Source of the DNA: a virus
Direction: 5' to 3' (one strand)
Length of the DNA stretch: 64,000 bases
UHGV virus genome: UHGV-0021788
A program made the translations under genes and the position numbers. Each line of letters starts with the position of its first letter. Position 1 is the stretch's first letter. Positions 2,383 through 7,376 of this stretch are shown here, one piece after another. The notes beneath the pieces are model-generated. The model had not been told where the DNA came from. It saw nothing but the letters and a program-made list of their open reading frames with translations, and did no database searches.

Positions 2383-2396
2383 AGGAGTTGGATATA

Positions 2397-3670
2397 TTGG
2401 AAACTATTAAGAAAAGTGCATTTCAAGAAATTGGTATTCTTAATGATAATGATTATTTTGATATAGTTACTAATACAAATGTTAATAGAAGAATTAAATT
2501 TTCAGCAATGAAAGAAGCTATAAATAATAGTGTTAATTCTTATGTCGATGTTAAAGCAAAAAATGGAAAAATTTTCAGATTAACTGTTAATAATGAAGGG
2601 GAAATAATTTGTCAAAATGCTGAAGCATATACTGCTACTGCTCCAGAAAAAACTGAAAGTGGTAGATTTGCTGGTTTAATGATAAACATGATATATGGTG
2701 GTGGAAATAATAAAAATAATACTGCTTGTTCACATCACTTTATAGAATTATATAATCAAAGTACTAGTAGTATGGATTTAAATTTAAAAGGACTTTATTT
2801 ATCTGTTAAAAGTAATACAGGTGATTGGCAATCTCTTGCATTAGAGGGTATAATACCTTATCAACATTCATTCCTTGTAAGATGTAATCAAGTTTCTAAT
2901 CCTGTACTATTAGGTACTAGATGTAAAATAGATACATATGACCAAGAATGGAATATAGATTTAACTGATGTAGGATTTAGTGCTTATTTATCAATAGGAA
3001 CACCTACAACTGTTAATCCAGCTAATGCAGATGGTAATATGAATAAAGAAGTTGGATATATAGACTTAATGGGTGCTGGTGGAACACAAGAAACACAAGG
3101 AGTTAAAGCTTTTGAAACTGCCTATCCAATGTTGATGACTAAAGATATAGGTTGTAGAAGACTTGACTTTGCTGATACAGATAATAATCAAAAAAACTGT
3201 AGAGCAATAAATTGGAAAACTTGTGATGTAAGTGTCTATAAACCTAGAAGTGTATCAGATGGTAAATGGGACTTATACTTTAACAAAGCAAAACTAAAAT
3301 CTACAATGCCTAATCTAATAAATATGTGTTATGGACAAGATGGTTCTAAAACTAGAACATTTACTTTCCAAACTGTATTAACTGATGAAGGTTATATTAA
3401 ATGGAGAAAATACGGAGAATTAAAATGGAATAAAAAACCTACTACTAAAGAAATAATAACTCACTATGATTGTGATGCTACTTTACATAGAGTTTTTATT
3501 ACTGATTTACAACCTGGAATTTATGAATATCAATGTGGTTCTGAAGGTGCATGGAGTGATATAAGTACTTTTGAAGTAAGAAATTATGCACAAACTGCTG
3601 ATAAAAGTAATTTTGTACATAACGATATAAAAATGTTATGGACTACAGACCAACAAGCATGGACTAACAT
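2397..3670 (+). CDS. Exon 1 of a split purple-acid-phosphatase-like metallophosphatase. It has a ~370-aa N-terminal domain plus a PAP N-terminal-like domain. Probable start is TTG 2397; the listed ORF is 2388..3674.
   Basis: C-terminal ITHYDCDATLHRVFITDLQPGIYEYQCGSEGAWSDISTFEV matches the PAP N-domain pattern. The ORF stops at 3674 just before motif I. The catalytic half lies downstream past a HEG. RBS AGGAG is 9 nt before TTG 2397. Confidence 0.45.
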
Positions 3671-3845
3671 ATAGTCCCTATATTAAGTGATTAGTATAGT
3701 AAATCCTTTGAATTGCTGGTAAATCCTAAAGCCTTATAAACTACAACATGATTAGAAATAATGAGTGTGAATGTTACGAAAGTAGAAAAAATTATAAGGA
3801 TAACATATGGTTAAATCCTAAGTGTTATATACAATGGAAGCTCAG

Positions 3846-3930
3846 CAGGTAAGATTCTAAATTAAATTATTTTAAATACTTGACTTTTAATAAGATAAAT
3901 TGTATAATATAAGTAAAGTGAGGTGATAAA
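3846..3930 (+). repeat. 85-nt HEG promoter/leader block, duplicated at 5984-6069.
   Basis: CAGCAGGTAAGATTCTAAATTAAATTATTTTAAATACTTGACTTTTAATAAGATAAATTGTATAATATAAGTA.AGTGAGGTGATAAA is near-identical in both. Confidence 0.85.
3880..3908 (+). promoter_or_regulatory. Consensus sigma-A-type promoter for the intron-1 HEG.
   Basis: TTGACT, 17 nt, TATAAT. Followed by ATAAGTAAAG and RBS GAGGTGA. Confidence 0.75.
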
Positions 3931-4845
3931 ATGGGAAGAAAGAAAACACATGAGGAATTTATGAAAGAGTTTTATGAAAAAAATCCTAATGCTAAAAATA
4001 TAGAAATATTAGGAAAATATGAAGGTAGAAAAGTAAAAATTTTATGTATGTGTAAAATAGATAACTATAAATGGCATACAACTCCTAATGGATTATTGGG
4101 AAGTAAAAATATTAAACCAAATGGATGTCCGAAATGTGCTGGAAAAATAAAAAAAACACATAAACAATTTATAGAAGAAATGAATGAAATAAATCCAAAT
4201 ATTAAAATATTGGGGCGTTACATAGATGCTAAAACTAAGATAGAATGTGAATGTAAAATAGATGGATATAAATGGGAAGTTGAACCAACTAATTTGCTAC
4301 AGAAAAGAGGATGTCCAAAATGTGCTAATAAAATACCTAGAGAACATGATGATTTTGTTAAAGAATTAAATAACATCAATCCTAATATAAAAATAATAGG
4401 TAAATTTATATCTACTAGAACTAAAATAGAATGTGAATGTAAAATAGATGGATATAAATGGGAAGCTGAGCCAAGACATCTTTTAGGAAATCATGGATGT
4501 CCAAAATGTAATGATTCTATTGGAGAAAAAATAACTTATAATATATTAAATAAATTAAATATAAAAAATATAAGACAATACAAATTTAAAGATTGTAAAT
4601 TTTATAAATGTCTTCCTTTTGATTTTTATTTGCCACAATATAATTGTTGTATTGAAATTGATGGTAAGCAACATGAGAATATAGTCAAATGGTTTGGTGG
4701 GTTAGATGGTTTTATAGATAGAAAAATTAGAGATACGGTTAAAGATATATATTGTAAGAATAATGGAATAAAATTAATTAGAATTACATATAAAGATATA
4801 AATGAAATAGAAAAAATAATTTGTCAAGAACTTAATTTAAATTAA
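3931..4845 (+). CDS. Intron-encoded homing endonuclease, family A. Three tandem ~60-aa zinc-ribbon modules (C-C...GCPKC) plus a C-terminal Vsr-like/DUF559 PD-(D/E)xK (EDxHD-type) nuclease core.
   Basis: Repeats THEEF..NPNIKILG..C.CKIDGYKW..GCPKC x3. C-terminus has FDFYLP...IEIDGKQHE...RDTVKD..GIKLIRI. Own promoter and RBS. Paralog of 6070..6984. Confidence 0.6.
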   Translation: MGRKKTHEEFMKEFYEKNPNAKNIEILGKYEGRKVKILCMCKIDNYKWHTTPNGLLGSKNIKPNGCPKCAGKIKKTHKQFIEEMNEINPNIKILGRYIDAKTKIECECKIDGYKWEVEPTNLLQKRGCPKCANKIPREHDDFVKELNNINPNIKIIGKFISTRTKIECECKIDGYKWEAEPRHLLGNHGCPKCNDSIGEKITYNILNKLNIKNIRQYKFKDCKFYKCLPFDFYLPQYNCCIEIDGKQHENIVKWFGGLDGFIDRKIRDTVKDIYCKNNGIKLIRITYKDINEIEKIICQELNLN

Positions 4846-5005
4846 TTTAATATGAATAAACTTCAACGACTAAGTATCCTAGTAGTCTAGGTAGTGGAGG
4901 ATACCCTTATTGGGTAATGATATAGTCTGCTCTCATGGGAAACCATGAGCAGTTTTTATGTAAAAAAACGGATAGAATAGTAACGATATTCTATTGAACA
5001 TAAGG

Positions 5006-5844
5006 TGTTGAGGAATCACAAGCTACTAATGTTTGTTTCCAAAATATAAGTGAATGGGAAAAAGGTACTGATTTTGATTTTCATTTAAATACAGGCGACA
5101 TTTCGCAAAATGCAAACAGAAGTTTTGAGTGGAGATACCACTATAAATATGCAGATGACCTAATAAGAACTATGTGTCATCAAATAACTTGTGGGAATAA
5201 TGACTTAATAGATAAGAAATATTCAGATGCATTTACATGGTACATGACACCAGAAGATTATTTCTTACCAGACCAAATAGATAGTGGTTCAGGTGTTATG
5301 GTTAATAATCCTAATAAATGTACTTTTAATTCATGTCATAGTTTTGACTTAGGATATGTACATTTTGTTTGTTTAAATAGTAATAAAGATTATTCTATGT
5401 TTAATGAAAATGAAGGTGAAAAAATAGATGATTGGATACAAAGAGAATGTGCATGGTTAGATGCAGATTTAACTAGAGATGAATCTAATGCTAAAACAAG
5501 ATGGGTAATATGTTATATGCATTACGCACCTTTTACAGTATCTAGACCTGACTGGATACAAAGATTTGTTCCTGTATTTGAAAAACATAGAGTACATTTA
5601 GTATTATGTGGTCACAACCATACAAACTCAAGAAGTATTGTAGTTAGAAGTGGTTATGATGGAGACCCAAATAAAGCAAGCTATGACCCTAAAGGTCAAA
5701 AAACAGCTGAAGAAGAAACAGCTTTAGGACATGGTACTATAAATCATAATGAAGATTTAAAAAATGGTACTCTTTACCTAATGATTAATGCAACTGGATT
5801 CAAGAATACAGGTAAAGAAAGTATACAAAATCCTTATCCTTGGT
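5006..5844 (+). CDS. Exon 2 of the split metallophosphatase, the catalytic core. Frame 3 is open from 5004; the listed Met-ORF is 5172..5846.
   Basis: GDISQNAN (GDLSY-like), VICYMHYAP, LVLCGHNHT (GHxH) and LYLMINATG align to PAP motifs. In-frame sequence without an ATG extends upstream to 5004. Confidence 0.5.
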
Positions 5845-6017
5845 AAAAAAATATTGCCACTTTACATAGTAATATGTAATGACAAACTCATTGAATTGCT
5901 GGGACGACCTTAGAGCCTTAATGCCACAATATAAGAGAAATCATTATATGAAGGTTTAAAAAGTTTAAGGATTGGTTAATCAGCAGGTAAGATTCTAAAT
6001 TAAATTATTTTAAATAC

Positions 6018-6046
6018 TTGACTTTTAATAAGATAAATTGTATAAT
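6018..6046 (+). promoter_or_regulatory. Consensus promoter for the intron-2 HEG.
   Basis: TTGACT, 17 nt, TATAAT. The 85-nt block is near-identical to 3846-3930. Confidence 0.75.
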
Positions 6047-6069
6047 ATAAGTAGAGTGAGGTGATAAAT

Positions 6070-6984
6070 ATGGGTAAAAAGAAAACACATGAGGAATTTA
6101 TGAAAGAGTTTTATGAAAAAAATCCTAATGCTAAAAATATAGAAATATTAGGAAAATATGAAGGAAACAATAAACCTATTAAATGTCGTTGCAGAATAGA
6201 TGAATACGAATGGTATCCAAGACCTTGTCATTTATTGGGAAATAAAAATGCTAAACCTACTGGTTGTCCTAAGTGTAGTGGAAAAGCAAAAAGAACAAAT
6301 GAAGAGTTTATTAAGGAAATATATATAATAAACCCTAATATAGAAATACTTAGTGAATATAGTGGAGTTAGTAATTTAATAGATTGTCGTTGTAAAATAG
6401 ATGATTATGAGTGGTCATCAATTGCTGATAATTTATTACATGGACATGGTTGTCCTAAATGTGGAGGACAAATAAAAAAGGAACATGAAGAGTTTGTAAA
6501 AGAAATGGAAGAAATAAATCCCAATATAGAAATACTTGGGGAATACAATGGAGTTCATGAATATATTTTATGTGGATGTAAAATATGTAATCATGAATGG
6601 ACAACTCGTCCTCATGAATTATTAAATGAATACGGATGTCCTTCTTGTAATATATCTCGAGGAGAATTTAAAATAAAAACTTTATTAGAAAAATATCAAA
6701 AACAATATAAATATCAATATAAATTTAAAGATTGTAAATTTTATAATGAATTACCTTTTGATTTTTATTTACCTGATTATAATATTGCAATAGAATATGA
6801 TGGAGAACAGCATTATAAAATAATTAAACAATTTGGTGGAATAAATAGATTAATAGATAGTAAAATAAGGGATACTGTTAAAACTGAATATTGTAAAAAT
6901 AATAACATAAAACTTATAAGAATACCTTATTGGAATTATAAAGATATAGAAAATATACTTATAAAAGAACTTAATTTAAAATAA
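6070..6984 (+). CDS. Intron-encoded homing endonuclease, family A paralog (zinc-ribbon x3 plus Vsr-like/DUF559 nuclease). Start ATG 6070; the listed GTG 6061 is unlikely.
   Basis: MGKKKTHEEFMKEFYEKNPNAKNIEILGKYEG is identical to the N-terminus of the 3931 paralog. C-terminus has DFYLPDYNIAIEYDGEQH...RDTVK...IKLIRI. Confidence 0.6.
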   Translation: MGKKKTHEEFMKEFYEKNPNAKNIEILGKYEGNNKPIKCRCRIDEYEWYPRPCHLLGNKNAKPTGCPKCSGKAKRTNEEFIKEIYIINPNIEILSEYSGVSNLIDCRCKIDDYEWSSIADNLLHGHGCPKCGGQIKKEHEEFVKEMEEINPNIEILGEYNGVHEYILCGCKICNHEWTTRPHELLNEYGCPSCNISRGEFKIKTLLEKYQKQYKYQYKFKDCKFYNELPFDFYLPDYNIAIEYDGEQHYKIIKQFGGINRLIDSKIRDTVKTEYCKNNNIKLIRIPYWNYKDIENILIKELNLK

Positions 6985-7140
6985 TTTAACATGAATAAAC
7001 TTCAACGACTATCCTGTAATGGAGTAGGGTTCAAGCGAACTCGAAGTAGTGAGCATCTTAATAAAGATGAAGATATAGTCTAGTCTCATGGGAAACCATG
7101 AGCAGTTTTTGTGCGTAAAAACAAAACGGGTTAGGTGTAG

Positions 7141-7376
7141 CGAACCTAATTGAATATAACGGGTATGGATTAAGAACTTCACATCCAACACAACCAACTT
7201 ATGCAACATTAACTATAGGTTGGGATAAGATAGAATATAAATGCTATAAGATAATGAACACATTAAGTAAAGATAGAAACGGAAATACAATAGTAGTGCC
7301 TTATGGTAGTCAAACTAAAGAATTGTATGATAGTTGTACTCTTAATTGGAGAGCAAAAGGTCAAACACTAATATAG
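7141..7376 (+). CDS. Exon 3 (C-terminus) of the split metallophosphatase.
   Basis: Frame 3 is open 7119-7376. NLIEYNGYGLRTSHPTQPTYATLTIGW..DRNGNTIV aligns to the PAP C-terminal FGHG...W.RN.DG. A U at 5844 and G at 7140 give an in-frame join (..NPYPW-S-NLIEY..). Confidence 0.45.

Follow-up and report, generated by a model that had tools for sequence, protein, structure and literature searches.

Two phage introns with zinc-module/Vsr-like endonuclease genes in a metallophosphoesterase gene: a new member of a described and very common architecture

A stretch of 64,000 nucleotides from the virus genome UHGV-0021788 (hereafter the window) contains two similar open reading frames, for which a preliminary description proposed an intron location, tandem zinc modules fused to a nuclease, and an architecture not described before. 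Which elements carry these reading frames, what do they encode, and is their design new? The reading frames, HEG1 and HEG2, lie in a gene of the phage tail/structural region that encodes a metallophosphoesterase of 776 aa and is split by two group I introns (Table 1). Very probably, these are two mobile introns of a clostridial-type phage with bipartite zinc-module/Vsr-like homing endonuclease cassettes in their P6 loops. The earlier reading of the proteins is correct, the architecture is already described and very common, and the locus is a well-documented new member.

Table 1. Features of the interrupted metallophosphoesterase gene, its introns and the predicted endonuclease genes in the window.
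Feature	Position	Strand	Remarks
Host-gene exon 1	2388..3664	+	ORF and Pfam: LTD and purple-acid-phosphatase-N domains; colinear with L003
Group I intron 1, 1341 nt	3665..5005	+	Rfam Intron_gpI 4840-4949; junction from L003 and L005
HEG1 predicted promoter, TTGACT-17-TATAAT	3880..3908	+	Inside P6 loop of intron 1
HEG1 putative RBS, GAGGTG	3920-3925	+	Read from sequence
HEG1, 304 aa	3931..4845	+	ORF; three zinc modules and Vsr-like nuclease
HEG1 predicted zinc modules	about aa 4-72, 73-135, 136-196 (nt 3940-4518)	+	Cys-rich, about 60 aa each
HEG1 Vsr-like nuclease	aa 197-304 (nt 4519-4842)	+	E199, D231, E242, D244, H248, D268
Intron 1 3′ core	4846..5005	+	Rfam alignment and three-intron comparison
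Host-gene exon 2	5006..5844	+	Pfam Metallophos match; calcineurin-like phosphoesterase core
Group I intron 2, 1317 nt	5845..7161	+	Rfam Intron_gpI 6980-7102; absent in L007
HEG2 predicted promoter	6018..6046	+	Same sequence as HEG1 promoter
HEG2, 304 aa	6070..6984	+	ORF; architecture as HEG1
Host-gene exon 3	7162..7376	+	W-YGLRTSHP... up to stop codon

Excision of both introns restores the 776-aa reading frame, which is colinear with the uninterrupted ortholog in the related contig L003. Exon 1 ends with the residues ...LWTTDQQAW-T, and the phosphoesterase core in exon 2 contains the motifs GDISQN, CGNND, and CGHNH. Against cultured phages, megablast of the region retrieved nothing apart from one metagenomic phage record that matched over 160 nt. 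The Rfam search of the whole window and of the whole region found no intron, and the two introns were detected only once the flanks of the reading frames were searched alone. The 3′ halves of intron 1 and intron 2 then matched Intron_gpI (RF00028) with 42.7 bits (E 4.5e-10) and 41.7 bits (E 9.9e-10), both as 5′-truncated matches; with the covariance model split by the 1-kb P6 insert, neither reached the gathering score of 50. Homologous introns lacking an ORF reached 65.3 and 105.5 bits. Introns and endonuclease genes of this kind are easily missed, as Rfam with default settings detected not one of the window's introns, which number at least four. The intron location of both reading frames was borne out by the Rfam matches, the restored reading frame, and the empty site in the relative L007, and the identity and exact boundaries of the introns are established.

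P1 of intron 1 pairs 3661-3666 with 3672-3677, and C-G replaces U.G at the 5′ splice site. This pair, which is kept in the diverged copy of the intron in contig L005, is atypical, and splicing could be reduced. P1 of intron 2 (UGGU/GCCA) has the U.G pair at this site. The terminal base of both introns is G (G5005 and G7161), and in the L005 copy of intron 1 the exon ends in TGGAC and the intron in AAGG. A 5′ splice site of intron 1 after U3665 was rejected, since it would leave U as the last base of the intron and since the L005 exon lacks that U. The 3′ core of intron 1 comprises P6′ (GAAUAAAC), J6/7, P7 (GACUA/UAGUC), P3′, P8, P9, and a distal hairpin, with an additional hairpin between P7 and P3′. 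The core sequences GAUAUAGUC, GUAACGA, and AACAUAA resemble those of the T4 td intron. The td intron is a group I intron of subgroup IA, with the gene of the homing endonuclease I-TevI in a peripheral loop (P6) and under its own promoter. I-TevI is a GIY-YIG enzyme with a C-terminal DNA-binding domain, unlike HEG1 and HEG2. In both window introns the endonuclease genes sit in the P6 loops. The high confidence given to the explanation as a whole includes the assignment of both introns to mobile group I introns of the phage T4 td-like type, subgroup IA, which are predicted to be self-splicing.

HEG1 and HEG2 are intact paralogs, 57% identical with no gaps. The start of HEG2 in the ORF list is GTG 6061, and the ATG at 6070 behind GAGGTG agrees with the start of HEG1. 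The division of each protein into three modules of about 60 aa, as stated in the preliminary description, was confirmed with the ORF list and with Pfam. DUF4379, a treble-clef zinc finger, matched three stretches in each protein (E 1.1e-12 for HEG1, and 1.8e-10 for HEG2), CapR matched with E 1.1e-11 and 1.1e-5, and DUF723 matched weakly; the precomputed Pfam matches of homologs are PF14311, PF05265, and PF21817. No Pfam match to NUMOD was found in the N-terminal regions. The GCPKC knuckle, described as the end of each module, is present in five out of six, and the third module of HEG2 has GCPSC. The first Cys of 'CxC' is probably not the fourth zinc ligand; this role probably falls to the D/H/C located three residues past the invariant Cys of the first knuckle, in a proposed C-x-x-D...C-x-x-C site. 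The modules, which are predicted to bind zinc and DNA, have diverged between HEG1 and HEG2 (46-55% identity), and the nuclease scaffold is common to both. Both proteins retain every candidate catalytic residue and nearly all of the metal ligands, and these positions are invariant across 55 homologs.

The C-terminus of both proteins contains the previously noted motifs DFYLP, IE(I/Y)DG.QH, RDTVK, and IKLIRI. This domain of about 100 aa has an EDxHD/Vsr-like fold, with I-Bth0305I as the best structural match, although the Foldseek matches are weak (best Vsr E 0.057). The invariant residues E199, D231, H248, and D268 have a spacing that fits the E-D-H-D set of I-Bth0305I and Vsr. The structural comparison with these enzymes, suggested earlier, upheld the Vsr-like part of the assignment, but not DUF559 or a sequence link. 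Pfam DUF559 (PF04480) scored 14.4 bits, below the cut-off of 20.6, and matched at E<=0.01 in only 3 of 28 nuclease domains. The best Pfam match of the domain was PvuRts1I-like_N, at threshold (27.0 vs 27). Searches against all PDB sequences with phmmer, a full-length profile, and a nuclease-only profile did not retrieve 3r3p, 3hrl, or 1vsr at E<=10. The hhalign comparison with Escherichia coli Vsr was not significant (probability 1.9%); its register fits the E, D, and H64 positions and ends before H248. The sequence criterion for the EDxHD family was originally a BLASTP E<1e-3 to Vsr, and HEG1 and HEG2 are without detectable homology to Vsr or to members of that family. Because a sequence-level link is undetectable, the catalytic equivalence to EDxHD/Vsr enzymes rests on fold and motif spacing.

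In 2025, phage-intron proteins that combine three to five CapR/DUF4379/DUF723-like modules with a distant EDxHD/Vsr nuclease were described (NAR, PMC12350094). The members of that group include AR9 gp078 and PBS1 gp271, both located in the virion RNA polymerase/HD-hydrolase gene, and intron ORFs of Herelleviridae. PHROG 559, to which this family corresponds, covers residues 1-300 of both window proteins (E 8.8e-72 and 2.7e-75), and relatives are labelled in GenBank as 'group I intron VSR' endonucleases, such as the 'group I intron VSR homing endonuclease' of phage phiIPLA-RODI; Bacillus phage Mawwa gp34 is a further relative. In tblastn, PBS1, AR9, Mawwa, and phiIPLA-RODI aligned to 94-99% of the query at 33-38% identity, and the family comprises about 29,000 cluster representatives. 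Given the publication, the GenBank labels, and the PHROG, the suggestion of an undescribed architecture is unsupported. No biochemically characterised member of the zinc-module and Vsr-like subfamily was found in the searchable literature.

Similar to the published endonucleases and PHROG 559, the window proteins have modules of about 60 aa followed by a Vsr-like nuclease of about 100 aa, and like the published ones they are located in introns of a self-splicing type in essential or structural phage genes (PMC12350094). In contrast to these, the host gene is a tail-region metallophosphoesterase and the phage lineage is uncultured, phiCD211/c-st-like by DnaE, both of which are new. Furthermore, a single gene harbours two paralogs, and the locus comes with exact empty alleles and a documented internal promoter.

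The prototype EDxHD homing endonuclease, I-Bth0305I (PDB 3r3p), differs in several respects (PMC3239194). Its N-terminal region has two NUMOD2/HTH motifs instead of zinc modules, its ORF interrupts P5 and not P6, and it is a homodimer with a pseudopalindromic site, whereas the HEG1 and HEG2 sites are not palindromic. E. coli Vsr (PDB 1cw0 and 1vsr, with the DUF559 protein 3hrl grouped with it) is a single-domain repair nickase with a zinc site and intercalating tryptophans. The position of Vsr H64 is Asp in the window proteins, and an additional invariant Glu (E242) occupies that of F62, a feature also noted for the EDxHD family. The CapR protein of the Vibrio cholerae PLE satellite shares the Cys-rich module of about 60 aa with HEG1 and HEG2, and its DNA binding depends on conserved cysteines; unlike them, it is a repressor with a single module and no nuclease domain (PMC8096241). 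In putative homing endonucleases of phage ICP1, the module is joined to T5orf172, of the GIY-YIG superfamily, and not to a Vsr-like domain (PMC8096241).

Uninterrupted alleles of the host gene are present in related contigs. In L007, a relative with 98.5% identity, intron 2 is exactly missing, so that window position 5844 abuts 7162 and the empty site reads agtatacaaaatccttatccttggt joined to GGTATGGATTAAGAACTTCACATCC. The empty site 1 in L003 reads CCAACAAGCATGGAC joined to TGTCGAAGAAGCACAAGCC. Three intron sites are known in the gene among the window and its relatives, and all three are polymorphic for intron presence among close relatives. Presence and absence in a genome 98.5% identical indicate recent mobility. 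According to the favoured explanation, each P6 loop would hold a self-contained cassette of a phage-type sigma-70-like promoter, RBS, and endonuclease gene. The likeliest role of the three tandem CapR/DUF4379-type modules is to bind a long stretch of the intron-less allele, and that of the Vsr-like nuclease with its E-D-H-D set is to cut near the insertion site. During co-infection, repair from the intron-containing genome would copy the intron and its endonuclease gene into the empty site, and self-splicing of the RNA would keep the host gene functional.

The cassette of promoter, ORF, and conserved ends may itself be mobile, having entered the P6 loops of introns that already existed without an ORF, and moving or recombining among related introns partly apart from intron homing. 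We regard this as possible, if doubtful. Rather than competing with the main explanation it adds to it, by addressing how the elements arose and how they behave. Introns of this type without an ORF (the DnaE intron, and site 3 of L007) have a short P6 hairpin at exactly the cassette position. The cassette head (89 nt upstream and 32 codons) is about 97% identical between introns 1 and 2, with 94% identity at third codon positions against 49-68% elsewhere, and the last 47 nt or so are near-identical. Conservation of the head does not extend to the L005 copy, and general functional constraint was rejected as the cause of its near-identity for this reason. At 3919, 3948, and 3954 the two window introns agree with each other, against intron 1 of L007. 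However, the identical stretches abut P4′, P6, J6/7, and P7, conserved ribozyme elements that would on their own seed ordinary gene conversion between the introns, which lie 2.1 kb apart. Pure conversion within the genome is insufficient for the head identity, because L007 lacks intron 2 yet keeps nearly the same head. No intron was found to occur at a given site in both states, with the cassette and lacking it.

With homing as the main explanation, the mode of cleavage can be considered. At both junctions, palindromy is no higher than at typical sites along the gene, with no dyad symmetry above background. A target of the pseudopalindromic I-Bth0305I kind was rejected on this ground, and a symmetric dimer like that enzyme's is therefore not indicated. 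It is conceivable, albeit rather unlikely, that the proteins are Vsr-like site-specific nickases, and that homing is induced by a nick and not by the double-strand break of a dimer. Vsr nicks one strand (PMC3239194), the targets lack dyad symmetry, and the long asymmetric array of three modules suggests monomeric binding. Nevertheless, the best structural match, I-Bth0305I, is reported to be a homodimer and to cut within a pseudopalindromic sequence, and the sequence has nothing to tell the two modes apart. Still more speculative is the idea that tandem CapR-type modules form a modular, roughly additive DNA-reading array with a fixed number of base pairs per module. If so, the length of the target would follow from that of the array (three modules here, many more in proteins of >1000 aa), and the enzyme would gain new targets as modules are swapped or diverge. 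HEG1, HEG2, and their exact non-palindromic empty sites, with thousands of intron-borne relatives, would then be a key to the recognition code, and the proteins could yield a new programmable nuclease scaffold.

The value of the locus lies in documentation, as a clean natural experiment for a very abundant class of homing endonucleases. A single gene here supplies three intron sites, two paralogous enzymes, and exact empty alleles from relatives up to 98.5% identical, so that the predicted cleavage, specificity, and zinc-module function can be approached directly with synthetic substrates.

The promoter noted earlier in each intron was found again in both, and the two are the best sigma-70-like sites in the region, with 11 out of 12 matches to TTGACA/TATAAT. 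They are part of a longer motif with 16 matches in the window against 0 expected, and belong to the promoter class of the minus-strand gene block, not to that of the host gene. Accordingly, HEG1 and HEG2 would be expressed as independent genes, if these candidate promoters are used. Independent expression, and CapR as an example of a zinc module acting as repressor, would also suit proteins that are no longer homing nucleases and serve as CapR-like regulators, splicing maturases, or nucleases against competitor phages, but for one or both genes this is very improbable, given that all candidate catalytic residues and nearly all ligands persist in both proteins, that CapR by contrast lost the nuclease domain, and that the polymorphism indicates recent mobility. 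For the homing endonucleases favoured here, the presence in introns of the structural block of a promoter class from the opposite-strand block bears on the expression timing of phage selfish genes.

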